From positions 1-37,266 of the IMG/VR virus record IMGVR_UViG_3300025084_003228: a stretch of 37,266 nucleotides of DNA. The stretch is one strand, 5' to 3'. The position numbers and the translations under genes were made by a program. The notes beneath the pieces were generated by a model. It saw only the letters and a program-made list of their open reading frames with translations. It did not search any database and was not told the origin of the DNA. Below are positions 2,354 through 30,670 of this stretch, piece by piece. Within the stretch, counting starts at the first letter, position 1. Every line of letters begins with the position of its first letter. The DNA is from a virus. Lineage: Duplodnaviria > Caudoviricetes.

Positions 2354-2365
2354 CTATTTATAGAT

Positions 2366-3484
2366 ATGATATTTGAAAATTTAGAAATTAGTGGATCATT
2401 AAGAGGACAAGGACCTACAAGACCTCCTTCAGGTTTGAAGGCGAGTAGACCATCTTCACCAGAAAATGGGTCTCTATATTTAGAAATGACAACCTCAGGT
2501 AGTTTTGATAATAGTTTCTTAATGGTTTATACGGGTAATGGAAACGACGGTGGATGGGAAAGAATTGCAAATCAAAGTAATTTTGGTAAAACTAGTTTCA
2601 AGTACAATCAGATAATAAACTATTCATATTTAGCGGGTGGTTACAAATCAAGTTCACCTTGGAAGAATGTACACAAAACAGTAAACGCAACCGACCAAAC
2701 ATCTCACTTAGGTGAGTTATTGGATTATCCCGCATCGTATACCTCAGGGGCATGTAGTAGAACAATTTTCTATGTTTGGTCTGTTAATGATGATGGTGCT
2801 TGGAAAAGTGCGGGTAATGTACATGGTACAACCACGTCAGCAGTAAATATGATGACCGATACCAACTATGCACATACCGCGGCAATGGATACTACCATAT
2901 CAAGAAGTGATTTAGGTACTATGTTTAAAGAAACTGAAATGGCATACCTTTTTAGTGGTGGTTCAACAACCGTGGAATTATTTAATTTAACTACAGAATC
3001 TTTACATACCGCATATACATTAACAACAATAAACGGTAGTGATGGTGCTTCCGCATTTTCAGATGAACTCCATGGTTATGGTTGGACATCGGGCGCTGGT
3101 GTAAAATTAAATTTTGCAACCGAAACATTTACAACCTCGGATCGTTGGGGTAATCACTCACAACAAAAAGGAATTAGTTCTAAGGTTGGAAAGGGTTATG
3201 CCGGTAATGAAGGTTCATATAATGGAGGTTACAATTTAAGAAGATGGAGTAATCAAACAGACACGAATATTGGTAACGTCCCTAAACCTGACGGAAATTG
3301 TGGTGAAGAAAACTTTACTATGGGTCAGGATTGGCAGTATATGTTAGGTAATTATAATGGTTTACAAAATAATAATGCGTGGAAATTCACGTATTCAACA
3401 GACACAGGAACTACAAGTGTTACAGGTTTAAATCCCGCGGTAAACCCAGGGACTTCTTCTGGACATTGTGGTTGGAGAGAATAA
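2366..3484 (+). CDS. Putative virion/tail-associated beta-propeller-like protein, paralogue 2 of 3
   Basis: Collinear with 1214..2353 (INYSYLAGGYKSSSPWKNVHK, QQKGISSKVGKGY, NCGEENF); ends SSGHCGWRE. Confidence 0.6.
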   Translation: MIFENLEISGSLRGQGPTRPPSGLKASRPSSPENGSLYLEMTTSGSFDNSFLMVYTGNGNDGGWERIANQSNFGKTSFKYNQIINYSYLAGGYKSSSPWKNVHKTVNATDQTSHLGELLDYPASYTSGACSRTIFYVWSVNDDGAWKSAGNVHGTTTSAVNMMTDTNYAHTAAMDTTISRSDLGTMFKETEMAYLFSGGSTTVELFNLTTESLHTAYTLTTINGSDGASAFSDELHGYGWTSGAGVKLNFATETFTTSDRWGNHSQQKGISSKVGKGYAGNEGSYNGGYNLRRWSNQTDTNIGNVPKPDGNCGEENFTMGQDWQYMLGNYNGLQNNNAWKFTYSTDTGTTSVTGLNPAVNPGTSSGHCGWRE

Positions 3485-3496
3485 AATAGAAAGAAT

Positions 3497-4612
3497 ATGA
3501 TATACGAAAATATGTCCGTTAGTGGTTCACTTAAAGTGGACAGAGTCACTGCAAGACCACCGAAAGGTGTTAAGTCACAGAGACCATCGAACCCATTATC
3601 GGGTTCTTTATTCTTGGAAGAATCATCCGAACACACAAGTTATCTTATGGTTTATACTGGTGTTTCAAATATAGAAAATGGTTGGGAACGAATATCGGCA
3701 CAACAGAATGAAGGGACTAACTTTAAGTACAGACAAATAATAAACTATTCGTATATGGCTGGTGGTTACAAATCAAGTTCACCTTGGAAGAATGTACACA
3801 AAGCGACTAATGCAACTGATCAGACAACACACATAGGTGAGTTATTAGACTACCCTGCAAACTATACCTCAGGAGCATGTAGTAAATCTATATTTTATAT
3901 GTGGTCCGTGAACACTGATAATGGACACAAAGGACCGACAACTCTACATAGTAACACAACTTCAGCGGTTAATATGATGACGGACACTAACTACGCACAC
4001 CAATCTAACCACGACTTACAATATAGTAGGTCCGATTGTGGAACCATGTGGAAAGAACATGAGTTTGCTTGGATTTTCGCGGGTAACAGAACTGAGGTGG
4101 ATAAATTTAATTTAAGTAATGAAACGACAATAACAAACTATGGTGTAACCTCGATAAGTAGTAGTGGTGGAGCGAGTTCGTTCTGTAATGAAACTCATGG
4201 TTATGGATGGAGTACAAGTAGTATAAAAATGGAATTCTCTACGGAGACCATATCAAGTGCGTCAAGTTCATGGTCAGCACACGGACAACAAAAAGGTATT
4301 GCGTCTAAAGTTGGTAAGGGTTATGCCGGTAATGAGGGATCTTACCAAGGTGGTTACAATTTGAGAAGATGGGATACATCTACAGATACTAATATTGGTA
4401 ATGTTTCTAAGTTAAGACCTAATTGTGGTGAAGAGAATTTCGCAATGGGACAGGATTGGCAATACATGTTAGGTTGTTACGGTAGTAGTCTTCAAAATAA
4501 CGATAGTTGGAAGATGTATTATCAAACAGACACAGGTGTTTTAAATCCGGCAGGTCTTCCACCAGCAGTGAACGCAGGTACGTCTTCAGGTCACTGTGCT
4601 TGGAGAGAATAA
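3497..4612 (+). CDS. Putative virion/tail-associated beta-propeller-like protein, paralogue 3 of 3
   Basis: Same motifs as paralogues 1 and 2; ends SSGHCAWRE. Confidence 0.6.
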   Translation: MIYENMSVSGSLKVDRVTARPPKGVKSQRPSNPLSGSLFLEESSEHTSYLMVYTGVSNIENGWERISAQQNEGTNFKYRQIINYSYMAGGYKSSSPWKNVHKATNATDQTTHIGELLDYPANYTSGACSKSIFYMWSVNTDNGHKGPTTLHSNTTSAVNMMTDTNYAHQSNHDLQYSRSDCGTMWKEHEFAWIFAGNRTEVDKFNLSNETTITNYGVTSISSSGGASSFCNETHGYGWSTSSIKMEFSTETISSASSSWSAHGQQKGIASKVGKGYAGNEGSYQGGYNLRRWDTSTDTNIGNVSKLRPNCGEENFAMGQDWQYMLGCYGSSLQNNDSWKMYYQTDTGVLNPAGLPPAVNAGTSSGHCAWRE

Positions 4613-8853: not shown

Positions 8854-8889
8854 TTGACTTTTATTTATATTTTATCTAAATTAAAATCT

Positions 8890-10647
8890 ATGAGAAAGTT
8901 TATTTTTTACATAGTAATCGCACTACTATTTTGTAATGTAGGATACTCCCAAACCAAAGTAGATACACTAAAAGTAAAGACTTTAGATGAGGTTGTCGTG
9001 GTTGCAGGAACTAACTACCAAGTTAGACAAGTATATATCGAACCTAAGATATATGAAAGGTCAATACAATTACAACAGACAAGTCCGGGTCAACTAAGTC
9101 CTTTCTTAGGTGGATTCACAGGTAACCAAGTTGATCAAGTCATAAACGATATAAGGTTTAATAGTGCATTATTCAGAACAGGTCCTAATCAATACTTTGG
9201 GTGGGTACCTATGAATTTTACTAAGAGAATAAGGATTAGTGATGGAGGTAATATAGGTGGTACAATTAATAGAGAGTTAGGTATCGACTCATCATCAATA
9301 AAACTATCTTATGATGGTGGTGTAAATGGAACAACTAATTATATTTCTTACAAAGAAGGTAAGTTTGGTATTGCGGTTAATAGTATTATAAACGATAATG
9401 TAAGGTCCGTGGGTGGTGAGATACCACACAGTTCTTATAATCAGAATTCATTAATCACTGAGTATCAATGGTCTAATAAAAATAAAACTACTTTTCTCTT
9501 CACCCAATCCAACGATTTAGAGAGAACTGATAAATGGAATGGTGGTGAAAGAATAAATGGTTTCCAAGATCCTAAAATCTATACGTGGGAATTACAGAGA
9601 TATATTTTACTTAATCATAAGTACGATTATAAGGATCTAAAAGTAAACTTTGCATATCAAAACTTCTCAGAAAATATACTCAACAAAACAACAAGAATAA
9701 AAAGTAGATTAAATTCGTTCACTATAAATGGTGAATATATGGTTAGTGACAATCTTGAACTATATACATCTAATGTAATTGAACATATTGATTACCAAAC
9801 TGAAGGTGTTGATTATGTCCCTAATGACCTTTACAAAACATTCAAACAAGGACTTAGGTGGGATATAAAACTTAAAGGGTTTAATGTGTTTGTAAGTGGT
9901 GGATACAAGACAGTAAAGATTACAGATATTGAACCATTCAGTGGATTCGAAAGTTCCTTTATTATAGGTAAGAAGGGTTTCTTTGGAAGTTATGTAAGGT
10001 CTTTAAACGCACCTAGCTACCTTATGGTAAAACAATCTATTACAACGGGTAAGGCCGAGCAACTACCTAATCCTGATCTTAAACAGGAAAACTCAGACTC
10101 GTATAGGGTTGGGTATAAGAATAGGGGTTTCTATGTGGACTTTAATTATAGGTTATTGAATGATGCAATAAGTACCATATTCATTAATTCAGATACCATC
10201 CAAACAGTAAATCAAGGTAAAATAAAGGTATGGTCATCAAATGTGGGGTTTAATAAAGATAACCTACTTAATAGGGGTATTAGTCTTAAGTCTAGGTTAG
10301 AATATGTTTATGGTAAAACATCGACAGATGAACCAATCAACAAAGTTTCTCCATTTAGAACCTACGTTAAGATAAGTAAGGATAATTTGTGGGTAGATTG
10401 GTCATTTCAAATTAAAGACGATGAACTATCTGAAAACGATTTGAATGATGTTAGACAGTATGCCCACAACAAGGGAGTGAACATAATCTCTGTAGGTTAT
10501 GACCATACGTTATTTAAACATAAAAATAATCCTATTAATTTGGGAGTATCCGTTTATAATATTCTAAATAATGAAAGTAGAATAACTGGATCATCAACAG
10601 ACTTACCTAAGAGGTCTGTGTTGTTCAATTTAAAAATGAATTTATGA
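8890..10647 (+). CDS. TonB-dependent receptor-like outer-membrane protein (compact, about 585 aa)
   Basis: ATG at 8890 gives a signal peptide (MRKFIFYIVIALLFCNVGYSQ). Also 'TLDEVVVVA' TonB-box-like segment, plug-like 'QQTSPGQLSPFLGGFTGNQV...RFNSALFRTGPNQY', 'PNPDLKQE', 'VYNILN' and terminal beta strand 'RSVLFNLKMNL'. Confidence 0.8.
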   Translation: MRKFIFYIVIALLFCNVGYSQTKVDTLKVKTLDEVVVVAGTNYQVRQVYIEPKIYERSIQLQQTSPGQLSPFLGGFTGNQVDQVINDIRFNSALFRTGPNQYFGWVPMNFTKRIRISDGGNIGGTINRELGIDSSSIKLSYDGGVNGTTNYISYKEGKFGIAVNSIINDNVRSVGGEIPHSSYNQNSLITEYQWSNKNKTTFLFTQSNDLERTDKWNGGERINGFQDPKIYTWELQRYILLNHKYDYKDLKVNFAYQNFSENILNKTTRIKSRLNSFTINGEYMVSDNLELYTSNVIEHIDYQTEGVDYVPNDLYKTFKQGLRWDIKLKGFNVFVSGGYKTVKITDIEPFSGFESSFIIGKKGFFGSYVRSLNAPSYLMVKQSITTGKAEQLPNPDLKQENSDSYRVGYKNRGFYVDFNYRLLNDAISTIFINSDTIQTVNQGKIKVWSSNVGFNKDNLLNRGISLKSRLEYVYGKTSTDEPINKVSPFRTYVKISKDNLWVDWSFQIKDDELSENDLNDVRQYAHNKGVNIISVGYDHTLFKHKNNPINLGVSVYNILNNESRITGSSTDLPKRSVLFNLKMNL

Positions 10648-11660
10648 TAGATGTAATATTAAATAACCAACACTTCCTTATATACCTTTCATTTATAATG
10701 GTTATAACAGGTATTTTAAAAGAGAGAGGGTATTTGGTAGATGTATTTAGTTTAATACTTAAAACGGTTAAATCTAAGAAGTTAGTTTTATTTCTAATAT
10801 CTTTATTTGGTGGGGTGTTACCTATACCCGGTAGGGTTGCGGTTTCTGCGGGTATACTTGATACCATTGCACCTAAAGATAAAGAAGGGAGAGAGAATTA
10901 CGGAATAATTGACTACCTGTCAACACACCATTATTATATATGGTCACCATTAGAAAAGACAGTTATAATACCTATGGCAATTTTAGGTATCACATATGGG
11001 GAACTAATGAATATGGTTTACCCATTACTTATAATATCCATAGTCGTTATAGGTACATACATTTACAAATTTAAAGACGGGAACATTGAAATACCTAAAG
11101 ATCACCAGGTTAATTATAAGAACATATATTCAATATTCCTACCCTTCATACTAACATTAGTATTGGCGGGTTTAACGGATCGTTATTTACCTTTATTTTG
11201 TGGATTCACCCTTTACTTAGTAAGTTACTCCAATTCGTGGGGTAAACTATTAAAACACGTCAGATGGAGATTAGTTTTGAGTGTGGGTATTGTGATTATT
11301 GTTTCTAATCTTATTTCGTTATATGGTAATGAAATAAAAACTAATTTAGAAGGGTATACATCCGAACATAACATACTCTTAGTTGGTACCTTATGTTTTA
11401 TTGGATCATTTCTATTAGGGTCATCAGGGAAGTACGCAGGGATAGTCTCATTAGTAACCTCTATTATGGGAATACAATATTTTCTATTCTTATTTACCAT
11501 GTGTTATTCAGGTTACCTTTTATCCCCAACACACAAATGTATCTACATTGGACAACAGTATTTTGGTACTCCAATTAAAAAATATTTATTATCCATTTCG
11601 GTTTGGGTAATAATTATGATAGTCTATAGTTATTTAGACTTGACTTTTACAATTAAATAA
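10644..11660 (+). CDS. Multi-pass membrane transporter-like protein (IT superfamily/DUF401-like)
   Basis: About 10 hydrophobic segments; 'GGVLPIPGRVAVSAG', 'HHYYIWSPLE', 'GYLLSPTHKC'. Start overlaps the receptor's stop (ATGA). Confidence 0.7.
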   Translation: MIDVILNNQHFLIYLSFIMVITGILKERGYLVDVFSLILKTVKSKKLVLFLISLFGGVLPIPGRVAVSAGILDTIAPKDKEGRENYGIIDYLSTHHYYIWSPLEKTVIIPMAILGITYGELMNMVYPLLIISIVVIGTYIYKFKDGNIEIPKDHQVNYKNIYSIFLPFILTLVLAGLTDRYLPLFCGFTLYLVSYSNSWGKLLKHVRWRLVLSVGIVIIVSNLISLYGNEIKTNLEGYTSEHNILLVGTLCFIGSFLLGSSGKYAGIVSLVTSIMGIQYFLFLFTMCYSGYLLSPTHKCIYIGQQYFGTPIKKYLLSISVWVIIMIVYSYLDLTFTIK

Positions 11661-12129: not shown

Positions 12130-13230
12130 TTAAACCTTCTTTTTAATTATGATTTTCAAATTTCCGATTTGATATTCCCCTACATCGTAGTGTGGAATTG
12201 ATAATCGGATTTTGTTTATTGTGTGAAGATCTTCTTCGTTCATTGATTCGGTTTCAATAATCATCACGTCTACAATATCACATAATAAGAATTTAGATCT
12301 TAAATCGTAGTTAGTGTTAGGTTGTTCATTTGCAATATATTCGGTGGGTGTAGTGCCACCTAAATACAATTTATCAAAATAAGGTTCTAACTTATATAGG
12401 TGTTTGTCACTCCTCAATTCAATACCCATATTAAACGTTGGGTAATTAAAAATTTCATCTTCCCAATAATACAGTTCGTTGAATGTAGGTATTGTGATAC
12501 CCCATTTACGTATAAAGTTACGTATGTTTCTATGTTCACTTAATTTACTTTCTTCGGACCTTAACACTCTACTTGTTTTAGAAACAAAGTGATATACTAC
12601 AGCACACTCTGTTGTCTTAAGTAAGTAACCTTTTAATTTGGCTCTAATAATGAAATCATCATCTTCACAGAAAAAAGGATCAAAAGTAAAACCATCAAAT
12701 AAACCAACATCAATAAATGTTTTCTTATAACCCGACATAAAAAATGTACCTCCATTAACTAAGTCCTTTCTTTCCTTAACTTTGTCAACGTATTGATCAA
12801 ATAAGTGATAATTAAAATCGTTAAATCCTCTACCTAATTCTAATATAACTTTACCAGGTCTTTTATGTCCTTTAAAAATTGGGGGTTCAATAGTAGTGTA
12901 TGTAATAAGAGATTTTTCATCAATCAGTTCCGATAGATTCTCTAAAAAATTCTTACCGATGACCATATCATTATGAATCAAAACCAACTTATCTGTATCA
13001 ACTAACTTTATAGCTGAATTATAATTGTCTGAGAAAGTTAATTGGTCATCATCGTGTATAAAGGAAAGGTTATCATCATCCAAAGATTGTAACCAATCTA
13101 ATGTACCATCTGTAGAACCACCACTACTAATCACCATAGGTGCGTCAGGATATATATCCCTAACCCTCTCATAGGTATTCTTAGTATAGTCTAAGTTGTT
13201 AAAAACAGCAAGTACTAAAGATATATCCAT
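12130..13230 (-). CDS. Glycosyltransferase family 2
   Basis: ISLVLAVFN, GGSTDGT, IHNDM, FDPFFCEDDDF, VYHFVSKT. Confidence 0.9.
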   Translation of the reverse strand: MDISLVLAVFNNLDYTKNTYERVRDIYPDAPMVISSGGSTDGTLDWLQSLDDDNLSFIHDDDQLTFSDNYNSAIKLVDTDKLVLIHNDMVIGKNFLENLSELIDEKSLITYTTIEPPIFKGHKRPGKVILELGRGFNDFNYHLFDQYVDKVKERKDLVNGGTFFMSGYKKTFIDVGLFDGFTFDPFFCEDDDFIIRAKLKGYLLKTTECAVVYHFVSKTSRVLRSEESKLSEHRNIRNFIRKWGITIPTFNELYYWEDEIFNYPTFNMGIELRSDKHLYKLEPYFDKLYLGGTTPTEYIANEQPNTNYDLRSKFLLCDIVDVMIIETESMNEEDLHTINKIRLSIPHYDVGEYQIGNLKIIIKKKV

Positions 13231-13835
13231 TATTTATTAGTATCATCAAATATTGAAATGAATAGTCGTTCGAAGATCCACGGACCTAATACTCTATCGA
13301 CACACAACTCGTTGGCCTTTTTATAAAACTCCACACTTCTCATTCTGATCGTATCTCTACTAACCGCAAATATTGCACCAGCAGTAAATGGGTATAGTTC
13401 AAGGGGTGGGTCTTCAAATAGTTCTACCCAAACACCATTTATATCCATACCTCCGTGATGTGGTAAACCGTTTGGTTTTGAATGTAAAACTCTTTTATAA
13501 TGATGACTATTACTAAAAAATAGTGATTGGTTAGGTTTTTCAAAAACCACTGATCTATTTGTATTTGGAAACTCTTTTAAAACCTCTTTGTAATTTGTAA
13601 CGTGATCAAATGGATGTCCTTGAGTAAAGAATACCCAATCACTTAAATTATCGTAATTTTTTATTATGTGAGTTAGATACGTGTTACCTTCTCGACCAAT
13701 GTTAGGTAAATTAATAGAATCTTCGATAGGTTCCCCTTTATTATATAAAAAAATTCTATAATCGGAAAACTCCGATAACCAAGATATATCCTCCTTATAC
13801 CTACTTACAATTAAATCACCTTTGTAGTTCGTCAT
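13230..13835 (-). CDS. DUF3431-like glycosyltransferase-associated protein
   Basis: IVSRYKEDISW, NIGREGNTYLTHI, FTQGHPFDH, GAIFAVS, FERLF. Start moved to MTNYKG (13835) to minimise overlap. Confidence 0.7.
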   Translation of the reverse strand: MTNYKGDLIVSRYKEDISWLSEFSDYRIFLYNKGEPIEDSINLPNIGREGNTYLTHIIKNYDNLSDWVFFTQGHPFDHVTNYKEVLKEFPNTNRSVVFEKPNQSLFFSNSHHYKRVLHSKPNGLPHHGGMDINGVWVELFEDPPLELYPFTAGAIFAVSRDTIRMRSVEFYKKANELCVDRVLGPWIFERLFISIFDDTNK

Positions 13836-14445
13836 AATAGTTATTTTGTTTTTCTTGTTTTTTAATATCTTTATGATGTATGAGTGAAAATGTTTCATCC
13901 TCAGGTAAGTTAGTATATGTATTATAGTTTACTAACCTTTCATGTACTTTACCGTACCATCTTATTCTACTTTCTTTTTTCCATATTCTTGTCTGAGTGT
14001 CAGGAAAATTTACCCACCCTATGGAGTTTACATTCCAACCCCACTTTTTAATGTGTTCGTCTGTCAAACCTTCAACAGTATTCACTCTCGAAATTAAGAA
14101 TACTTCGTTTTTAGGGTTCGCCTCAAGTATCGTTGGTAGATAGTTGATTAAATTTAAATGAGGTATTTCATCCGCATCAATTTGAAAGATGTAATCACCA
14201 TTACAATAATCTGAAAGTGTATTTTTCCACTCACCAAAATGACCATCGAAGAAACCTCTCCACATTTGAAAGTTAGGTAACTTATTATGTTTGACTAACC
14301 ATTCCGATACTTCTTCGGAACCATTTTTCTGATCGTATAAAACAACTATTTCATCCTTAGGTCTTTTGGTCCTAAGTAGAAACTCAACGAGACGTTTTAT
14401 TTCTTCGAATTCATCACAGACAGTTATTGCGTAACTAATTTTCAT
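13816..14445 (-). CDS. Glycosyltransferase family 2
   Basis: KISYAITVCDE, DYIFQIDADE, FPDTQTRIW, GKVHERL. Confidence 0.9.
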   Translation of the reverse strand: MKISYAITVCDEFEEIKRLVEFLLRTKRPKDEIVVLYDQKNGSEEVSEWLVKHNKLPNFQMWRGFFDGHFGEWKNTLSDYCNGDYIFQIDADEIPHLNLINYLPTILEANPKNEVFLISRVNTVEGLTDEHIKKWGWNVNSIGWVNFPDTQTRIWKKESRIRWYGKVHERLVNYNTYTNLPEDETFSLIHHKDIKKQEKQNNYYDELQR

Positions 14446-15291
14446 TTATAAACTTTTTATATAATTTTCTAATCTATCTTTTGGTATCCATTTTAGTCTT
14501 TCTACCATATCGTTATTTTCTCTAAGTGTGCATCGGTAATTACCCTTCTGTTCAGGTATTAATATATGGTCAACTTCAAACTTATTTTTAAACATCGAGT
14601 ACACTTCATTGATGGAGTAATTTATACCCGTCCCTAACTCCCATGCATCATCATGAGACTTATCGGTCATCCCAATTTTATAAAGACCATCTACGATATC
14701 AACAACGTGTGTAAAGTCCCTTCTTTGTTCACCGTCACCTACGATTGTTATTTTCTCACCATCCCTTACCTGTCTTCTCCAAATACCTATAACTGCTGCC
14801 CAATCTCCATCGACAACTTCATTAGGTCCGTAAACATTATAGAAACGTGCAATTTCACAGTTTAAACCATAAACCTTACGATACATTTTTAATATTTCCT
14901 CACCAAGATGTTTGTAACACGCGTATGGTGATTGATATGGGTCATGCCATCTTGAAGACGAACCCGCATAAATAACTTTAGCCCCAATAGTTTTTGCGAA
15001 TTCACAAACCATTTGAGTACCGGTTACATTAGTATCGTAAGTTAGTAATGGATTTTCAAAAGAGGGTTGTATTCTTGACAGTGCGGCTAAATGATATATA
15101 ATATCAAAATCTTTATCCATAAGATCAATTAACTGTATATCACCTGTATGATAGTTACATCCATCAACTTCATTCTCAATTAAACCACTATCGTAATTAT
15201 CTATTGAGTGAACATCGTGTCCTTCTTTTAATAATCGTTTTATAAGGTTAGTACCGATAAACCCTGCACCACCTGTTACTAATATCTTCAT
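14446..15291 (-). CDS. NAD-dependent epimerase/dehydratase (extended SDR)
   Basis: KILVTGGAGFIG, HLAA, YACYK (YxxxK), RFYNVYGP, GDGEQRRDF. Confidence 0.93.
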   Translation of the reverse strand: MKILVTGGAGFIGTNLIKRLLKEGHDVHSIDNYDSGLIENEVDGCNYHTGDIQLIDLMDKDFDIIYHLAALSRIQPSFENPLLTYDTNVTGTQMVCEFAKTIGAKVIYAGSSSRWHDPYQSPYACYKHLGEEILKMYRKVYGLNCEIARFYNVYGPNEVVDGDWAAVIGIWRRQVRDGEKITIVGDGEQRRDFTHVVDIVDGLYKIGMTDKSHDDAWELGTGINYSINEVYSMFKNKFEVDHILIPEQKGNYRCTLRENNDMVERLKWIPKDRLENYIKSL

Positions 15292-16556
15292 TCCTTTTCA
15301 ATTTTTTTTAATTCAGGTAAAACCAATTTAGTTTTCTTTGGTTTAACTGCGTTTATTATTACTGATTTTAAAATATCTTTAAACTTGACTGTCGTTGATT
15401 CTAAAGAGAAGTTATTTTCATTCTCTTCTTTAAGAAGTTTAGACTTTTCTAAGAACTCTTCATACTTGTCTTTCACAATTTTAAACACCTCAATAACTTC
15501 ACCGTAATTACACGTAAACCATTTAGATTCTTTAAGTATGAAATCATCTGAGGCACTCTCATGTACGTTGGTCAACTTACCACCTAACATTATTGCTTTA
15601 TCCATTGGTAGGAAATCTTTGTGACCCGACCAATTAGATGCAATTATCGGTTTACCCGTCATAGAAAATTCTAATAGAGGTCTCCCAAATCCTTCACCCT
15701 TTGTTAGAGTTACCATTGATTTTACCTTAGGGTGGTTGTATAAGTCGTTCATCTCATTATCGGTGAGTTGTCCAAACAATAAGTAAATTTTGGGTGGACT
15801 ATTATAAGACGATGTAATCCTTTGTATTTTCTTTCTCATCACTTCCCTTTGTTTAATAGAGAAGTTAGCACTGGATGTCTTTAAAATTAATCCAGGGGAA
15901 TCCTCAACACCATTAAACGAATCACAGAAACACTTAATTAACATACCCACGTCTTTCCTGTCTTGTCCAATGTCACCCTTTAACCAATGACCAACAAATA
16001 AGTAATTAAAATCATCTTCTAAATCTAACTCTAAGTCCGATTCTTTCTCATAGTATATTGAAGTATCCACACCTTCATGAAGAACTTCTAAATCTACATT
16101 TATTTTATGTTGAGAGATTAACTTACCTGTTACTTTATCTGTTTCATTATAGACGGTTTGTAGTAAAACATCTCTAGAGAAGGTGGATGTGGTTATAACC
16201 TTATCCATCCTATTTATTCCATCTATCCATTCCTTAGGTGCTGCGGTGGTTTCTATACCCGCTGTGACACCAATATTATACTTACCCTTCCGTTGAAATT
16301 CGTTAGGTACAGTCACTTGAATATACACGTCAGGTATGAAATCTAAACTACTTACAATGTTCTCCTCTATCCAAGTATGAAATAAATTCACCTCGGGTTC
16401 TAAAGCGGTCATGGGAGTCTTACCCCAGTTACAACTGTCAATGTATATGTCAAATGAGTCCATATCATATAAGGACTTCAACAAATCTCTTGAGTGAGAA
16501 CCATAACCACTTAAAGTCTTAATTGGTCCTCTAAATAATAGTTTCTGTTTAATCAT
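15288..16556 (-). CDS. Glycosyltransferase family 4 (GT-B)
   Basis: SGYGSHSR, RKDVGML, TKGEGFGRPLLEF (Ex7E), PIIASNWSGH. Confidence 0.9.
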   Translation of the reverse strand: MIKQKLLFRGPIKTLSGYGSHSRDLLKSLYDMDSFDIYIDSCNWGKTPMTALEPEVNLFHTWIEENIVSSLDFIPDVYIQVTVPNEFQRKGKYNIGVTAGIETTAAPKEWIDGINRMDKVITTSTFSRDVLLQTVYNETDKVTGKLISQHKINVDLEVLHEGVDTSIYYEKESDLELDLEDDFNYLFVGHWLKGDIGQDRKDVGMLIKCFCDSFNGVEDSPGLILKTSSANFSIKQREVMRKKIQRITSSYNSPPKIYLLFGQLTDNEMNDLYNHPKVKSMVTLTKGEGFGRPLLEFSMTGKPIIASNWSGHKDFLPMDKAIMLGGKLTNVHESASDDFILKESKWFTCNYGEVIEVFKIVKDKYEEFLEKSKLLKEENENNFSLESTTVKFKDILKSVIINAVKPKKTKLVLPELKKIEKE

Positions 16557-16568
16557 ATTGTGTTAAAT

Positions 16569-16781
16569 CTAATCCTTTGGAAAATACTTGTCTAATGTTT
16601 CTAATTTATCGTCAGCATCTACCAGCATTGATAACGCTTCTTCAGCGTTTTTATAGAAGTCACCTGTTGAGTGATCCCCAATACCTGACCCTTTAGTCCC
16701 TAAAAGATCTAAAGTTAAAAGTGCCTTTGATTTCTCTGCCAATGCACTTGTTCTTAGCATCTCTATTAATTTTTCGTTCAT
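16569..16781 (-). CDS. Small hypothetical phage protein (GIGDH motif)
   Basis: 70-aa helical ORF within the operon. Confidence 0.65.
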   Translation of the reverse strand: MNEKLIEMLRTSALAEKSKALLTLDLLGTKGSGIGDHSTGDFYKNAEEALSMLVDADDKLETLDKYFPKD

Positions 16782-16795
16782 ATTATAGTTTTTAA

Positions 16796-18178
16796 TTATG
16801 TTATTTTAAATAATTCAAATTTTTTCTTAGGGGTGAATTTGGATAGTGACTTCTCAATACCTTTAACTAATGAATTACACATAGTCTTAGTTGAGAAGTT
16901 TTTTACCATATATTTTCTCCCTATGAGTCCTCGTCTCTTTCTTTCCTCTCTACCTAAATTGTACATTTCTCTTATAGAAGAAACAACATCATAATGATTG
17001 ATGCGGTCATCAAAAATATAAGGAGTATTAACTGACCCATTTAGTGTTGTTGATGCTGGCCATACAGGACTTACCCACTCACCATGAGTAACCTTACCTT
17101 CCCACTTCTTAGGGTCATGGAGTGTACCTATCTCTATGTAGTCATCGGCCGTTATTAACTTACCATCCAATTCAAATCCACACTGGTCCTGTAATCCACC
17201 AGTGACATTTACTATTATTGGAGTACCACACATTACAGATTCGGCAGTGGTCAAACCAAAACCTTCATTGTTTGCAATGTTAATAGTACAATCAACTGTA
17301 TTATAAATTCTATTTAACTTATCCTGATCAAACTTATCATTAGTAAATTTTACATCATACTTAGGACATAACTCATTAACAACTGCAACTAAGTCAGTTC
17401 CGTTTTTATCTATAGACCTCGTATGCATTAGAAGTAAACATTTACTTGATTCTTCTTCGGTAAGTGTGTCACAAAATGTTTTGTATGTGTATATTACATC
17501 GGATGGTTGTTTACGTTTAATATTTCTATTATTAAAGAACAAAATAAAGTCATAGTCTTTGTCACCGTGTATAAATTTCCTCATTTCATCATCAACCTCT
17601 ACAGGTTTAAAAGTTTCAGGATTTATACCGTGAGGTACATAACTGACTTGCCACTTCTTCAACGGTTTATGAGTGACCTCCCTATTTGACATACCAACCC
17701 TATTAACTATACCATAGGTTTGTTTTGAAATACAACCTAACCAATCACAAGATTCGTAATAATCTCTATTATAATAAGGATCTGGTAAGTCATCCCATAT
17801 ATGGTAAAAGAAAATGGGTATCTGTTGTCTTATTTCATGTTCACTGTCGTATAACCATTGCCAATAGTGTGGATCAGTAAAATGTAAAATTGCATCAGGT
17901 TTCTCAATTGAAATTAATTCTCGTAACCTCTCAATATTACCATAACCATTTGATGGATATATTTTTACATTTGCGTCTTTTACTCCCGTTTTATTTCGTA
18001 CATCGGAATTAAGATCCACAATTTTACCAAACTCAGGGTGTTTTATAGCGGCACCCAACTGAACCCAATCAAATTTGTCCACACTACCTATAACCATTTC
18101 TTTTGACATGGTCGCCACACCTGATGTCATTCTCATGTCATCAGATAAAAGTAAAATCTTTTTCTTACTCATATTCAT
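16796..18178 (-). CDS. Glycosyltransferase family 4 (GT-B)
   Basis: KILLLSDD, VPHGI, NRNIKRKQ, NEGFGLTTAE (Ex7E), TGGLQDQ. Confidence 0.9.
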   Translation of the reverse strand: MNMSKKKILLLSDDMRMTSGVATMSKEMVIGSVDKFDWVQLGAAIKHPEFGKIVDLNSDVRNKTGVKDANVKIYPSNGYGNIERLRELISIEKPDAILHFTDPHYWQWLYDSEHEIRQQIPIFFYHIWDDLPDPYYNRDYYESCDWLGCISKQTYGIVNRVGMSNREVTHKPLKKWQVSYVPHGINPETFKPVEVDDEMRKFIHGDKDYDFILFFNNRNIKRKQPSDVIYTYKTFCDTLTEEESSKCLLLMHTRSIDKNGTDLVAVVNELCPKYDVKFTNDKFDQDKLNRIYNTVDCTINIANNEGFGLTTAESVMCGTPIIVNVTGGLQDQCGFELDGKLITADDYIEIGTLHDPKKWEGKVTHGEWVSPVWPASTTLNGSVNTPYIFDDRINHYDVVSSIREMYNLGREERKRRGLIGRKYMVKNFSTKTMCNSLVKGIEKSLSKFTPKKKFELFKIT

Positions 18179-26733: not shown

Positions 26734-26769
26734 AAGGGGTTCAATGTAAATTGGGTCCCTTTTTCTTTT
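26734..26769 (+). terminator. Rho-independent terminator
   Basis: aaggggttcaat-gtaa-attgggtccctt stem-loop followed by tttctttt. Confidence 0.75.
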
Positions 26770-26771
26770 AG

Positions 26772-26800
26772 TTGACATATTGTAAAAATATCCTTATATT
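26772..26800 (+). promoter_or_regulatory. TTGA-N19-TATATT promoter-like motif
   Basis: ttgacatattgtaaaaatatccttatatt upstream of 26819. Confidence 0.6.
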
Positions 26801-27168: not shown

Positions 27169-27444
27169 ATGAAAATAGATTTCAATAAAATACTTGAGGC
27201 GTATAGAATAAAAATTAGTCCAACTAAAGAACAAAAAGACTTGGCACTAAAAAGATTAAACATTTGTAAAGGATGTGAATTTCTTAAGGGTAGTGTTGAG
27301 GATAATTTTTGTAGTTGTGGTGTTTGTGGTTGTTTTATACATGGTAAGATATTTACTAATAAAGGGGATGAGTGTCCAAAAGGTAAGTGGAGTAAAGTAG
27401 ACCAAGGACACTTTAAAACAAAAGTTAAAAACACATTAATATGA
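27169..27444 (+). CDS. Cys-rich phage protein (RLxxCxxC...CxxCGC...CPxGKW; DUF6171-like)
   Basis: RLNICKGCE, CGVCGCFI, ECPKGKW; ATGA overlap with the next gene. Confidence 0.7.
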   Translation: MKIDFNKILEAYRIKISPTKEQKDLALKRLNICKGCEFLKGSVEDNFCSCGVCGCFIHGKIFTNKGDECPKGKWSKVDQGHFKTKVKNTLI

Positions 27445-29486
27445 GAGCAGTTCTAGTAGGTAATGACTACCTTAAAGATAATAACGGTAATTTTAAACAC
27501 TTAGAAAGTAACACTTCTGTTTTACCTTCATTTGTAAGAGCCGAAGATTACTTTAATAAATCTGTATTTGATCAGTTTCTTTTAGATAATAACATAACAA
27601 GTATTGTCATTATAGATGCTTTAGGTCCTACCTTCGTACAAGATGGGTTAGACAAACAACATGACGGTAATTCTTCTTATCAAAAGATTAGTCATATGTT
27701 ATCTAATGTATATGGTGAAACTCACAATGTTAGTTTTATCACTCAAAATCAAGATGGATCTTTACCATTGATCGATGATGCGGATGATAAACTAATCTTA
27801 AGAATTGCATATGACGACAATGCGTTAGTTGATGAATCGTACTGTAAAGATAATTTTGGGTTTCTAAAATTAATATCTGATAGTAATCCCAACTCATTAC
27901 CTAATGTATTTTTTAATGATGGGAATGAGATTAGTGTAGATACCATAGGTACGACGATAACAGACAATGGTAACCACCCTAACTTTATTATTAAGGAAAG
28001 GTATCCTACGACCAACTATAAAAATTACCCTAAAGTATATAGAATTAATGGTATTGAGGAATTAAACACACTTAAAAACGGATTAAATAGTAATGAATTA
28101 CTTCAGGAATATATTTGTAACACTAACGATTTAATTGACGGTAAATTAAAAACGTACAGACATATTACAATACTATACGGAAGTGACCTGTCAGTTTTAA
28201 ATCCGTTCGACGTATTCTGTCATTCTAATAGGTTACCAATAACAGATGCTGTGGATTACGATGGTACAACAAATGAACTATCTCCATGGGAGAGACCTAA
28301 GTACTTACAAAAAACAGGGTCAACGGCAGTTTCGAAACTTTATACTGGATCTGAAAACGATAATGTTAAAAAAAGTGATGGTTCATTAGTTAAACTAAAA
28401 GATCTTAAAGTAGGTGATAACCTCTCAAGTGTGATATTATCGGGATTAGGACCTGATGACGAATCCCACGCTAATTTTGTTTCGAATATAAATGATTTAA
28501 ATAGTAGTAATGTAATATATTCACCTGTATTTGATGGACCATTTGGAGGTATGTCTTATACTAAAGAAGAAGGTTCTCACCCAACATATAATAATCCAAG
28601 TACATCTAACGAATGGGGTGGTTTTGCAAATACCAATACAGAATTATCAAACATTACGTTTCCTGAAGGTGGTCGAATAACGTTCGACGCTTCTTGTGAG
28701 GGTAGTGCTCAAGTTATGTTTCTATTAGAGAAAGATGTATATGATGCAAACGGTAATGGTGATGAGGATACCGAACCCAAGTATACAACCGATTTAGTTA
28801 CTATCAGTGGTACAGGGACTACGGAGTATTCTCTTGAGATATTTCCAAATAGTGAATATAGTTCTTTTGTAATGAAGGTTATGACTCAAGATTTGGATGT
28901 CAATATATCTAATACCAAGATTATATCTTACGTAAGTGAACTCACCGATACTTCAGTTAGTACTGATAGTATTATTTCCGAAGAGTCGGGATTTTTTGAA
29001 CACATTATAACCTTAAGTGGGGGTAAAACATATACCTTTTTAGGTAGAAGTCAAATCCTATCATCAGGACCAAACGATGAGTTGTATAGATTCATGATTG
29101 CGGATAATTTATTGGTTGGGTGTAAAGTAATAACAAGAGAATTAAGTGGGGGGAACCTTATTCCCGAAACGATAGTTTCTATGGGTTATAGGTACGTCCA
29201 TGAAGTTGCATATAGTATAGATGTCGAAGAGGTAGATTACTATTTCAGAACAGATAGTTCTGAAACCCCTACACAAAGTGTTATTCATCACAATAAAGAA
29301 CAGATTGGGTGTTTGTGTTATTATAAAAACCAAGAATGGACCAATTGTAGTTGCAATAGTGCATGTATTTATGCTATGGGTGAATGTGATGAAGGTGGTG
29401 GATTCATAGATTGTTGTTCTCAACAACCAATGTGTTATGGAGGTGTATATTCAATGGGTGGATGCGGTGATACAGGTAAAGAATAA
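27441..29486 (+). CDS. Fusion of circularly permuted ATP-grasp-like domain, Hint (intein-like) domain with insertion, and Cys-rich C-terminal peptide
   Basis: N-terminal GxD...DxxG...LExNT, then FIIKERYP and LLQEYI. Hint-like 'DGSLVKLKDLKVGD', 'ITLSGG', 'ADNLLVG', 'YSIDVE...YF...IHHN'. Then 63 aa with 10 Cys. Confidence 0.65.
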   Translation: MRAVLVGNDYLKDNNGNFKHLESNTSVLPSFVRAEDYFNKSVFDQFLLDNNITSIVIIDALGPTFVQDGLDKQHDGNSSYQKISHMLSNVYGETHNVSFITQNQDGSLPLIDDADDKLILRIAYDDNALVDESYCKDNFGFLKLISDSNPNSLPNVFFNDGNEISVDTIGTTITDNGNHPNFIIKERYPTTNYKNYPKVYRINGIEELNTLKNGLNSNELLQEYICNTNDLIDGKLKTYRHITILYGSDLSVLNPFDVFCHSNRLPITDAVDYDGTTNELSPWERPKYLQKTGSTAVSKLYTGSENDNVKKSDGSLVKLKDLKVGDNLSSVILSGLGPDDESHANFVSNINDLNSSNVIYSPVFDGPFGGMSYTKEEGSHPTYNNPSTSNEWGGFANTNTELSNITFPEGGRITFDASCEGSAQVMFLLEKDVYDANGNGDEDTEPKYTTDLVTISGTGTTEYSLEIFPNSEYSSFVMKVMTQDLDVNISNTKIISYVSELTDTSVSTDSIISEESGFFEHIITLSGGKTYTFLGRSQILSSGPNDELYRFMIADNLLVGCKVITRELSGGNLIPETIVSMGYRYVHEVAYSIDVEEVDYYFRTDSSETPTQSVIHHNKEQIGCLCYYKNQEWTNCSCNSACIYAMGECDEGGGFIDCCSQQPMCYGGVYSMGGCGDTGKE

Positions 29487-29504: not shown

Positions 29505-29648
29505 ATGTCAGAAGTAAATAAAAATACTCTTTATAACGATAAAAATCAGATTAGACCAATTATTGATAAATCCTCTACGGAAGATAAAACAAGTATTGAG
29601 AACCTAACTAACAGTTTTGTTCAACTAATAAAGGACAAACACCTTTAG
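29505..29648 (+). CDS. 47-aa hypothetical protein (not in the ORF track)
   Basis: MSEVNKNTLYNDKNQIRPIIDKSSTEDKTSIENLTNSFVQLIKDKHL fills the gap after the fusion gene and has an A/T-rich start context. Confidence 0.6.
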   Translation: MSEVNKNTLYNDKNQIRPIIDKSSTEDKTSIENLTNSFVQLIKDKHL

Positions 29649-29944: not shown

Positions 29945-30141
29945 GTCTAAGTAAAACATATAAAAAGGCATTGAAGGTTATTGATAGTTGTCACACTAAG
30001 GAACAAATCAAAGGAGCCGCAAATTATGTAAATCTTTTTCTTAGTCACTTTACCAAAATGGGTGAGGACTCCGAACTAATAAAAATATACTATACAGAGT
30101 TAAATGGGTCTATTCAAAATAAGTTGAATGAGGGTTTCTAA
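29941..30141 (+). CDS. Small hypothetical protein
   Basis: 66 aa, KVIDSC...Q motif; overlaps both neighbours. Confidence 0.65.
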   Translation: MSLSKTYKKALKVIDSCHTKEQIKGAANYVNLFLSHFTKMGEDSELIKIYYTELNGSIQNKLNEGF

Positions 30142-30670
30142 GACCAAAATAAAAGATTGTTATATAATTGAGTACGATAAGTATTTCGATGAAAGAGGAC
30201 ACTTCTCTGTACCTTTTAATGTGGATGATTTTAACAACCAAACAGGGTTAGACTTTCAAATAGTCCAAGAAAACGAGTCCTTCTCAAAAAGAAACACTAT
30301 AAGGGGTCTACATTTCCAAAAACCCCCATTTGAACAATCTAAATTAGTAAGATGTATCCATGGTAAAGTCACAGATGTAATTGTGGATATTAGAAAAACA
30401 TCTGACACTTATGGTGAGGTGGTTACAGTTGAGTTGGACGAACACGATGTTAAATCTGTATTTGTACCTAAAGGATGTGCACATGGATTCTCAACACAAT
30501 CATCGGCGGTATTCCAATACAAAGTTGATAATCAATACAATAAGGAGAGTGAGTGTGGTATAATTTATAACGATCCTGATCTTAAAATAGAATGGAACGT
30601 AGATCATAACCCCAAAATAAGTAAAAAGGATTTATTACTTCCCTTTTTAAAAGATTTAGATATTTATTAG
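30128..30670 (+). CDS. rmlC: dTDP-4-dehydrorhamnose 3,5-epimerase
   Basis: DERGHF, QENESFS, TIRGLHFQ, QSKLVRC, DVIVDIR, VPKGCAHGF, YKVDN, DPDLKIEW. Confidence 0.93.
   Translation: MRVSKTKIKDCYIIEYDKYFDERGHFSVPFNVDDFNNQTGLDFQIVQENESFSKRNTIRGLHFQKPPFEQSKLVRCIHGKVTDVIVDIRKTSDTYGEVVTVELDEHDVKSVFVPKGCAHGFSTQSSAVFQYKVDNQYNKESECGIIYNDPDLKIEWNVDHNPKISKKDLLLPFLKDLDIY

Follow-up and report, generated by a model that had tools for sequence, protein, structure and literature searches.

What would a phage make with a single protein in which a predicted ATP-dependent ligase, an intein-like domain and a cysteine-rich tail follow one another? The question is raised by an open reading frame (ORF) on the plus strand (27441-29486, 681 amino acids (aa), referred to below as the hub protein) of a marine T4-like phage, analysed as a window of 37,266 nucleotides (the whole stretch of DNA, IMG/VR record IMGVR_UViG_3300025084_003228). 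The initial annotation had assigned an ATP-grasp domain, a Hint domain and a 10-Cys tail to this ORF, and these assignments were borne out by structural models and alignments. The reading preferred here, with a probability of about 40%, is as follows: the ligase, completed by a separately encoded peptide, acylates a lysine of its own tail in cis with an acid from outside, and the Hint domain then releases the tail, so that each protein is used once.

Homologues of the hub form a family of 358 clusters (50% identity) with freely varying tails. The family had no match in Pfam, PHROG or NCBIfam, or among 50,697 annotated phage records; a search of a viral fold library gave no specific match, and the best hub row of a PDB sequence search was weak (BIL2, E 0.04). 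The layout (ATP-driven ligase, Hint domain with a sugar-binding insert and Cys tail) was not found in the literature searched. A cellular origin was considered and rejected: 2 of 25 GTDB pattern matches were true relatives, both were in metagenome-assembled bins, and a gene for the Gp23 capsid protein is present on the larger contig. Parts of the hub were covered by contigs 90-99% alike in four marine metatranscriptome runs, which is not taken as evidence of transcription.

A predicted two-piece ligase

A circularly permuted, split ATP-grasp ligase domain was assigned to residues 1-296 (27441-28328, plus strand) from a model (pLDDT 86.5) and a fold search. The GxD...ExN motif (residues 5-25, 27453-27515) stands ahead of FIIKERYP (residues 182-189) and LLQEYI (220-225), the order that had been interpreted as permuted. 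The model agrees with that interpretation: it aligned in sequence order with permuted ATP-grasp ligases, and its D...ExN hairpin precedes the lid and the C-terminal sheet. The best 10 fold rows were all permuted ligases, covering approximately residues 1-294 of the model in order (Z 6.7-9.3, rmsd 4.2-4.9). Alignments were obtained with 3k1t (Z 9.3, rmsd 4.3, 225 residues aligned), YgiC 7uka (Z 8.3, rmsd 4.2, 207 aligned) and GspS 2io7 (Z 8.0, rmsd 4.6, 210 aligned); such scores (8-9.3, with rmsd above 4 Å) are moderate. Domain order, fold (Z 8.0-9.3) and D...ExN metal site are shared with YgiC/YjfC (7uka, 7uk6), GspS (2io7), eukaryotic glutathione synthetases, Cp1B (9cjn) and 3k1t. Unlike these permuted ligases, to which it is approximately 10% identical, the hub is fused to a Hint domain and a presumed amine substrate, and a separate gene of 47 aa is predicted to encode the segment before its first strand.

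Six residues (D9, E22, N24, K185, E223 and R240), assigned by motif as the predicted Mg/ATP residues, show no variation among the 158-160 members in which these positions are covered. Where permuted ligases have the Arg of an RxD motif, the hub family has Gly or Ala. A Pfam search with 44 ligase domains matched no ATP-grasp family, a PDB sequence search with the ligase domain gave nothing useful, and the profile comparison with E. coli RimK was not significant; that no sequence method recovers an ATP-grasp match counts against the cis-acylation model. From its fold and invariant residues, the hub is predicted to be an ATP-dependent amide ligase.

The small genes on either side of the hub (starting at 27169 and 29505) had been proposed to form a three-gene unit with it; this is supported, and both recur beside other hubs. 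What the initial annotation missed is that the product of the downstream gene (29505-29648, plus strand, 47 aa) is a predicted component of the enzyme itself. The ligase model has as its first element the opening strand of the GxD/RxD hairpin (its residue 1 corresponds to GspS 310 and YgiC 94), and the helix ahead of the first catalytic strand of permuted ligases is not in the hub chain. The match to RimK covers model residues 1-216 only, and RimK 217-242 (the segment before GVD at 246), presumably a strand plus helix, has no counterpart in the hub. On the basis of a complex model, gene linkage and natural fusions, the prediction is that the 47-aa peptide completes the ligase with a strand and the absent helix and also bridges to the Hint domain. 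The complex scored 0.83 against 0.02 for the best control, a mark reached by 116/157 solved complexes and 2/215 mismatched pairs, with the qualification that the complex was folded with custom alignments and ligands, outside the calibration of the scoring tool. Runs agreed in at least 86% of contacts, with a partner pLDDT of at least 87; in the model, peptide residues 16-20 contact hub residues 260-265, and residues 31-42 contact residues 10, 18 and 144-145.

The peptide gene follows every distinct hub checked (57/57 and 55/55). In addition, seven Hint-less relatives have a peptide-like segment fused to the ligase as the end of the chain, and three of them match the short-peptide profile (E 8e-6, 0.003 and 0.01); the seven form one clade and hence represent one event. 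The loci of these fused tail-less forms were looked for and none were found. The RimK segment was not detected with the peptide profile, and a PDB sequence search with the peptide gave nothing useful; the missing-helix reading draws on the ranges of the structural alignments, on the modelled complex and on the fused relatives, and sequence comparison does not contribute to it. Together these point to the 47-aa peptide as the predicted missing piece of a split ligase.

The Hint domain and its insert

The 317 residues originally described as Hint-like do contain a Hint domain; they also contain a sugar-binding-like insert of 143 residues, which is not Hint and which the initial annotation missed. 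The two parts of the Hint domain (residues 302-355, 28344-28505, and residues 499-618, 28935-29294, plus strand) lie on either side of this insert, and residues 302-620 aligned with Hint 1at0 (Z 17.1, rmsd 2.3, 143 aligned). Thr302, not Cys, sits at intein position 1, and the C-terminal part ends with His617-Asn618 (29289-29294), the predicted cut site, followed by Lys619. All 158 members that include the C-terminal part retain Asn618, and 153/158 retain His617; Cys near position 1 occurs in 3/158, block-B TxxH in 0/158, and Cys/Ser/Thr at +1 in 6/158. The fold and these counts agree with the cleavage-only type that had been proposed (no N-terminal Cys or TxxH, His-Asn kept and then Lys), and the conservation of His-Asn on which that proposal turned was found in the homologues.

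A-type BIL domains keep the N-terminal Cys, with His-Asn and a non-nucleophilic +1 residue; the hub Hint has no Cys1, and the second Hints of some relatives fit the A type by motif. Class 1 inteins have Cys/Ser at position 1, block-B TxxH and Cys/Ser/Thr at +1 (PMC4031507; papers given by PMC number are cited for the parts of their text that were available), and the hub Hint departs from them in these features. In fold (Z 15.5-17.1), His-Asn and non-nucleophilic +1 residue it is like bacterial intein-like domains, Tetrahymena BUBL1 BIL2 (6tmm, 2lwy), which forms an isopeptide to Lys (available part of PMC8616854), and hedgehog Hint (1at0). Unlike those Hints, it has no Cys1/TxxH and carries a CBM-like module in a loop. 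Lacking Cys1 and TxxH, it would perform no N-terminal activation, and acyl activation would come from ATP. By analogy, C-terminal cleavage would proceed by Asn cyclisation. It may be slow or absent, because block-F helper residues are partly missing: by our reading of the spacing, position 592 is Thr, Ser, Phe or Lys, not Asp, and position 599 is Asp in 129/160 and His in 18/160 members.

The insert (residues 356-498, 28506-28934, plus strand) lies inside the Hint loop and has a galactose-binding-like jelly-roll fold (residues ~355-499). It was assigned as a CBM4/CBM29-like module by fold alignment (1wcu, Z 11.5, rmsd 3.1, 127 aligned; 1gwk, Z 10.7; 1gui, Z 10.0) and is predicted to bind a glycan; its fold-atlas matches under 0.9 are leads only, and Pfam gave no match. 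The module is present in 27/160 aligned members and absent from 133, and for this reason cannot define the donor of the family. A second hub lineage gained a glycan-binding-type insert independently, again in the Hint loop. A protein search with the insert returned 24 matches, all hubs, with no relative outside the hub family; in a search of viral contigs an outside-family relative was found at 1/9 loci. A relative of the insert (35% identical) adjoins a baseplate-hub gene of another phage.

If the Hint domain were left uncut, the whole protein could be an adhesin of the virion or cell surface, anchored via the tail Lys and displaying the CBM and the Cys-rich domain. The degraded block-F helpers would suit such a role, as would the repeated entry of glycan-binding-type inserts, the baseplate-hub neighbour of the insert relative, the swapping of tail and insert among close strains, and the S74 chaperones of other members, which belong to tail-spike and fibre proteins (PMC3742440, in the part available). 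An adhesin is nevertheless improbable: the Hint drifts elsewhere, yet 153/158 members retain His-Asn; the hub gene has non-structural genes around it and is distant from where the syntenic relative has its capsid and tail modules; and cargo-less forms would have nothing to display.

The tail and its conserved lysine

The 63-aa tail with 10 Cys was confirmed (29295-29483, plus strand, ~6.8 kDa, Lys at 619, 629 and 680). It had been suggested that the peptide behind His-Asn is hypervariable and the domains ahead of it conserved, and this held: P0012 shows 98% identity over the ligase compared with 63% over the tail, and tail and insert have been exchanged among close strains. What the tails have in common is a lysine, and not the N-terminal Lys or C-terminal Glu for which roles had been envisaged; family-wide, the first residue is Lys in only 30/158 and the last residue is Glu in 27/123. 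Among representatives of 50% clusters, tails without Lys number 0/70 (15.7 expected), a single Lys is present in 46/70, and none of the control residues is in comparable excess. K680 (29478-29480) matches the family-wide near-terminal Lys, and K619 is found in 24/26 members of the insert-bearing clade, many of them near-identical. Of tails bearing S74, 34/35 end with K or KP before the Ser of the chaperone; a count of the Ser-to-Lys spacing in S74 forms is a product of the pattern used to find them and carries no weight. The 19 members with a second Hint have no Lys between the Hints, and 17 keep a Lys behind the last one. In cargo-less members just a Lys or a stub a few residues long is left, with the ligase residues and the peptide gene kept.

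The catalytic Glu is Gln in 7/7 fused tail-less proteins and Gly in tail-less P0175, having been lost on two separate branches of the tree (a quick version with SH-aLRT support only); tail-less P0204 and P0122 keep it. Because Lys is conserved and this Glu is lost in tail-less forms, the tail Lys is the candidate nucleophile. Against cis-acylation, the tail in the window carries three lysines, not one.

The ligase might also cyclise the released tail, from its N-terminal amine or Lys to a C-terminal or side-chain acid, with a phage RiPP resembling graspetides or cyclotides as the product. Both tail ends are freed in many members (Hint plus a stop, S74 or a second Hint), Cys counts are even in 70/70 tails, a Lys-to-terminus ring would be feasible in the 27 tails with an internal Cys-x-Lys, and ATP-grasp enzymes make graspetide lactams (PMC8939145, part available). 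On the other side, 13/70 tails lack both Asp and Glu, the terminal residues vary freely, the last residue is Lys in 20/70, and cargo-less members leave a Lys or short stub yet retain ligase residues and peptide gene. The acid-free tails and the Lys stubs mean that graspetide-like self-cyclisation, part of the original suggestion, cannot be the general job of the family; it is less likely than acylation with an outside acid, and we give it a small chance.

Graspetide systems (microviridin and chryseoviridin ligases, 7mgv) resemble the hub in combining an ATP-grasp enzyme with a short helical peptide as partner, which for the hub is a prediction, and in having a core that contains Lys. Their ligases are unpermuted (7mgv, Z 4.7, with the alignment starting at model residue 52), and they differ further in their separate precursor and in their Ser/Thr/Lys-to-Asp/Glu links. 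Graspetide cores have conserved Asp/Glu acceptors and Ser/Thr/Lys donors, and Hint domains or phages were not found mentioned in the available part of that source (PMC8939145). The hub has a permuted order and a fused core, and its Lys is conserved though 13/70 tails are acid-free. As is proposed for the hub, borosin RiPPs have the enzyme fused to the peptide it modifies, which is released later; they use methyltransferase chemistry and an outside protease, in contrast to the ligase and built-in Hint of the hub. In Hint-bearing polymorphic toxins, as predicted for the hub, the Hint releases a variable C-terminal part (PMC3417536, part available). The hub differs from these in having a ligase at its N-terminus, no secretion or delivery domain, and a small Cys-rich peptide or bare Lys as cargo, the tail being in some members a single Lys. 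The product of the 47-aa gene downstream, for which binding to the ligase is predicted, resembles a subunit of an enzyme more than an immunity protein.

Neighbouring genes and a proposed reaction

The upstream gene encodes a 91-aa six-Cys DUF6171-like protein (27169-27444, plus strand; Pfam DUF6171 E 3e-5, under the cut-off; phrog_13558 E 9e-9), and its stop overlaps the hub start. It is present at 73/81 Cys-tail loci versus 13/80 loci of the mostly cargo-less group, and the protein is likely a helper for the Cys-rich tail. A sigma-70-like promoter (26772-26800, plus strand, 11/12 matches), just after a terminator-like hairpin (26734-26761), is a possible but weak candidate for the operon start; the region overall had 20 promoter-like sites versus 20.3 in shuffles.

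The 91-aa protein ends in an island tag (N-T-L-I). A loose K-[S/T]-[L/I]-[L/I] tag ends 335/1145 ORFs at 80 hub loci versus 6/243 ORFs of a 248-kb relative, and persists in cargo-less loci. The C-termini of tagged island proteins, including the 91-aa protein, could thus be the acids that are isopeptide-linked to the tail Lys, and the fold neighbour YgiC is a peptide-spermidine ligase, joining a peptide to a polyamine amine (PMC11762307, part available). Such conjugation is unlikely: it would be costly, since every tagged enzyme would use up a hub; the tag might simply serve docking or targeting; and the marine clade has only 2-4 tagged genes, mostly 35-45 kb from the hub.

Common neighbours of hubs encode 2OG-Fe(II) oxygenases, a carbamoyltransferase and glycosyltransferases; others, sulfotransferase-like by a motif, were not confirmed as such with Pfam and NCBIfam. 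These enzymes would be accounted for if the conserved Lys were a site of hydroxylation, glycosylation or carbamoylation, with the Hint cutting first and the new alpha-amine, which cleavage yields whatever the +1 residue, attacking the target acid. That order of events is very unlikely: the +1 residue is Pro, a poor nucleophile for such ligases, in 18/158 members, and a tail freed before ligation loses the advantage of the fusion.

Acylation in cis by an outside acid is the reading we retain. The hub and the 47-aa peptide would be made together, the peptide docking as the missing strand and helix, as suggested by the predicted complex, the gene linkage and the natural fusions. To judge from the fold and the invariant residues, ATP would then convert a carboxylate to an acyl-phosphate, which the epsilon-amine of a tail Lys, most likely K680, would attack in cis. 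Finally, by Hint chemistry, cyclisation of Asn618 would free the acylated 6.8-kDa tail, which is probably disulfide-bonded or metal-bound. The favoured donor is perhaps a sugar acid made by the tailoring island of the phage, or else a virion or host surface that the island has glycosylated, since on two occasions a glycan-binding-type module entered the Hint loop, and in a close relative the island has genes for a UDP-sugar dehydrogenase and glycosyltransferases.

More broadly, and as a doubtful proposition, large aquatic phages might possess a self-consuming tagging machine without known counterpart: a peptide-switched, two-piece ligase would couple an acidic glycan or tagged protein to a Lys of its own exchangeable, disulfide-rich tail, and an intein-like domain would release the conjugate. 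The outcome would be a large library, found in nature, of glyco- or iso-peptides of knottin-like form, which in the marine lineage a sugar-binding module would direct to their targets. If this scheme is true, phages build peptide conjugates post-translationally with one self-processing protein and no separate protease, and the islands of tailoring enzymes in large aquatic phages would acquire a definite function. An ATP-grasp enzyme that is split in nature and switched by a peptide would also be gained, together with a sequence-tolerant tool for lysine acylation and release.

Domain organization and conservation of the hub protein

The 681-aa hub ORF (27441-29486, + strand), its motifs, the His-Asn pair and the 63-aa tail with 10 Cys were re-read from the sequence and lie where the initial annotation had placed them. 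The protein had no match in Pfam, PHROG or NCBIfam. When its full-length model (mean pLDDT 81) was searched with Foldseek, the hits included Hint and CBM structures as well as YgiC/YjfC and glutathione-synthetase-like ones. The wide structural search upheld the Hint assignment, with a predicted Hint fold at residues 302-620 (1at0, Z 17.1, rmsd 2.3, 143 aligned; BIL2 6tmm, Z 16.0) and a predicted jelly-roll on residues 355-499 (CBM29 1wcu, Z 11.5, rmsd 3.1, 127 aligned; CBM4 1gui, Z 10.0). When the ligase domain was modelled alone (pLDDT 86.5), permuted ATP-grasp enzymes aligned to it in sequence order (rmsd 4.2-4.6), and unpermuted enzymes aligned only from residue ~50 on. The fold-search scores were moderate (Z 9.3 for 3k1t, 8.5 for GSS22, 8.3 for YgiC, 8.0 for GspS and 8.0 for Cp1B), yet most of the 50 rows listed were ATP-grasp by title; the in-order alignment supports, at the level of models, the permuted ATP-grasp N-terminus proposed earlier.

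A word search recovered 109 relatives of the hub. With 44 ligase domains used as a profile (E up to 0.001), 358 clusters (50% identity) were reached, the best 150 of which were listed. Among 160 distinct aligned members, D9, E22, N24, R121, D125, D131 and Y134 never vary in the 158 sequences that reach these positions; K185, E223 and R240 are the same in 160/160. Asn618 was found in 158/158 and His617 in 153, so the conservation expected of the ATP-grasp and His-Asn residues was borne out. A Cys lay near Hint position 1 in 3/158, TxxH was found in 0/158 and a +1 Cys/Ser/Thr in 6/158. By the list of splicing residues in PMC4031507, where Asn and the penultimate His serve C-terminal cleavage, the hub Hint is unable to splice but keeps the residues for C-terminal cleavage, in line with the cleavage-only type suggested by the initial annotation. 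In a subgroup (L012:6001-7914, P0065, P0067, P0073; tails of ~155 residues), Ser-Asn replaces His-Asn.

Members with the 143-residue jelly-roll insert form a clade (support 99), and the sister of this clade, P0026, is without the insert. In the family member P0123 this Hint loop holds another insert, which matches CBM4 of laminarinase 16A (1gui, E 3.5e-5); P0123 stands on another branch beside the insert-less P0033 (support 99). Glycan-binding-type modules therefore entered the loop on two occasions. The window insert has a 35%-identical relative in a protein encoded directly 3' of a baseplate-hub gene in another phage. Insert alleles are swapped among close strains: for locus L001 identity is 97% over the ligase and 69% over the insert, for P0016 the values are 82% and 97%, respectively, and one RNA-run contig has a replaced insert segment.

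The partner peptide and a predicted split ligase

In the first 80 loci, a 24-50-residue ORF follows 57/57 distinct hubs. The same type of ORF follows 55/55 distinct hubs in a distant group that is mostly cargo-less (cargo-less members terminate in Lys or in a short stub containing it) and, by a looser test, 84/84 of a third set that partly overlaps the others. The long, short and distant peptide classes detected one another in profile comparison.

In the window this ORF encodes 47 aa (29505-29648, + strand). The complex model of hub residues 1-620 with the peptide, ATP and Mg scored 0.83, against 0.02 for the best control. This mark was reached by 116/157 solved pairs and 2/215 mismatched pairs, counts that hold only roughly because our own alignments and ligands were used. 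The runs shared at least 86% of contacts, with partner pLDDT of at least 87. Contacts were predicted between peptide residues 16-20 and hub 260-265, and between peptide 31-42 and hub 10, 18 and 144-145, with a predicted bridge from peptide 9-10 to Hint 582-584. In the fold search, the hub chain begins at the strand equivalent to GspS residue 310 or YgiC 94, and the RimK match was restricted to RimK 1-216 (RimK GVD is at 246 and EVN at 260). The intervening RimK 217-242 is a strand plus a helix. The peptide is predicted to dock where the ligase fold has a gap; no sequence method tied it to the RimK 217-242 segment.

Natural fusions are a second line of evidence for a split enzyme. P0159 and six relatives (302-317 aa, the relatives 48-59% identical to P0159) lack the Hint and the tail and end in a peptide-like segment; the short-peptide profile scored 3 of these 7 among 372 proteins. 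Since the six placed in the tree form one clade (support 99) nested in the short-peptide group, they represent a derived deletion, a single event kept during divergence. With the catalytic Glu changed to Gln, P0159 and P0254-P0259 are probable pseudo-enzymes; a search for their genomic locus found none. A full-text literature search found no paper on a split ATP-grasp.

The tail lysine and the proposed chemistry

The tail proved hypervariable behind conserved domains, as had been anticipated: the ligase of P0012 is 98% identical, its tail 63%. Lys was present in 146/146 unique tails although it makes up 2.6% of residues, and lay within the last four positions in 111 (shuffle mean 15, maximum 31; 2000 shuffles); the number of Cys was even in 142. 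Because unique tails include close kin, the count was redone on 50%-cluster representatives, of which a plain Cys-rich tail filter kept 70/128 (left out: S74, second Hint, long tail, stub or unlocatable end). None of the 70 lacked Lys (15.7 expected), 46 had exactly one, and all had even Cys; in 41 the Lys lay close to the end, and in 27 it was part of an internal Cys-x-Lys.

An S74-like chaperone follows the tail in 35 members, and K or KP precedes its Ser in 34; such domains are cut at that Ser (PMC3742440). A second, canonical Hint lies inside the tail in 19 representatives, in a survey where 14 were not locatable; no Lys occurs between the Hints, and Lys stands behind the last His-Asn in 17/19. 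Six double-Hint Cys-tail members are dispersed among single-Hint kin in the tree, as if extra Hints had been inserted repeatedly just upstream of Lys. Loci L143:5001-7736, L150, L159 and others have up to four Hints, spacers of 0-7 residues and a His-Asn-Lys end; their later Hints resemble mobile elements that had landed in a short tail with a Lys. Cys-poor tail domains of 145-540 residues occur in P0210, P0212, P0215, P0217, P0218, P0226 and P0245, so the Hint can carry whole folded cargo; the five placed in the tree form one clade. In P0059, a ~100-aa module (weakly like Pfam At5g54830, E 0.11) sits within the Cys-rich tail, ahead of the last two Cys.

Catalytic Glu22 is Gln in 7/7 fused tail-less proteins and Gly in the tail-less P0175, on a separate branch; the tail-less P0204 and P0122 retain it. 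Lys, an amine, is the one residue kept by every tail, and the catalytic Glu is gone from most tail-less forms; the likely nucleophile is therefore the Lys of the tail, acting in cis. Self-cyclisation of the tail is improbable: Asp and Glu are both absent from 13/70 tails, and in some members the tail is nothing but a Lys. For the same reason the acid likely comes from outside. ATP-grasp enzymes phosphorylate an acid and then couple it to an amine (PMC12568646). In the preferred scheme, the ligase would phosphorylate an acid for joining to an amine, the tail Lys would attack this activated outside acid in cis, and cleavage by the Hint would release the product afterwards. If the donor is a glycan or a surface acid, we give this scheme a probability of about 0.4.

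By our reading of the block-F spacing, position 592 is never Asp and 599 is mostly Asp, not His, which would count against cleavage by the hub Hint and favours an uncut, anchored adhesin, a reading we consider unlikely. The released peptide was initially given a new N-terminal Lys and a C-terminal Glu; these two ends are not general in the family, the first tail residue being Lys in only 30/158 and the last Glu in 27/123. Ligation through the new N-terminus is the least probable reading.

Neighbouring genes, source phage and relation to known systems

The six-Cys gene (91 aa, 27169-27444, + strand) was found at 73/81 Cys-tail loci versus 13/80 loci of the mostly cargo-less group, both sets including near-duplicates and truncated flanks. 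Frequent neighbours were 2OG-Fe(II) oxygenases, radical SAM enzymes, a carbamoyltransferase, APS kinase and GDSL-like proteins. A C-terminal K-[S/T]-[L/I]-[L/I]-like tag occurs on many of these neighbours and was carried by 335/1145 ORFs of the second locus set versus 6/243 of a 248-kb relative; the scheme with tagged proteins as acid donors is a doubtful variant of the preferred one, in which a glycan or surface acid is joined to the tail Lys. The tag is common to about ten unrelated enzyme families of the tailoring islands (L001-L080, L115-L194). In G002, an 89%-identical relative, tagged genes besides the six-Cys gene lie 35-45 kb from the hub, within an island that encodes a UDP-glucose/GDP-mannose dehydrogenase, GT7 and GT2 glycosyltransferases, a methyltransferase, a carbamoyltransferase and radical SAM enzymes; this island falls outside the window.

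Elsewhere in the window, three tandem paralogues of 371-379 aa (1214-4612, + strand; phrog_1417, E 2e-44 for the first) and the genes 3' of them (phrog_1409, phrog_1604, a radical SAM gene, phrog_1458 and a methyltransferase) form a conserved module directly downstream of a fibre-like gene. At 8854-11660 (+ strand), a DUF401 membrane protein accompanies a 597-aa protein with no family match, which gives the impression of an outer-membrane beta-barrel receptor with a signal peptide; being unmatched in either syntenic relative, its gene may be a recent pick-up. A glycosyltransferase cluster (12130-18178, - strand; GT2, DUF3431, an epimerase and two GT4-like genes), together with RmlC (30128-30670), points to putative phage-made glycans.

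The 37,266-base window is a whole virus record with an estimated completeness of 16%. Near-identical DNA occurs in marine/seawater metagenome runs, at least half of the words being present in 14/24 runs among the matches listed (2 possibly the source). In the 248-kb relative, 31 window proteins were matched in nearly fully conserved order; with its gene for a Gp23 major capsid protein (E 1e-71), it identifies the source as a large T4-like phage. The bin that holds this contig is a metagenome-assembled genome of Flavobacteriaceae, a weak hint of the host. The hub had 0 matches among annotated phage records, and GTDB genomes gave two family matches, both in metagenome bins.

No description of the ATP-grasp/Hint/Cys-tail layout was found in the full-text literature on phage ATP-grasp enzymes, BILs and RiPPs, a body outside which most subscription papers lie. 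The term-matched passages of PMC3417536, PMC7824862, PMC11118758, PMC8939145, PMC4031507, PMC8616854, PMC11762307, PMC12568646 and PMC3742440 do not describe it. For jumbo phages, PMC7824862 notes R2K-family ligases and cyanophage tailoring clusters, and a ligase-Hint fusion is not among the ligases noted there. Architecture, conservation patterns, gene linkage and fusions are direct observations of the hub system; its folds and the binding of the peptide are predictions. The anatomy is well supported, and we infer the chemistry. The hub system is a real and widespread phage system, made of known parts in an arrangement outside every family tested.
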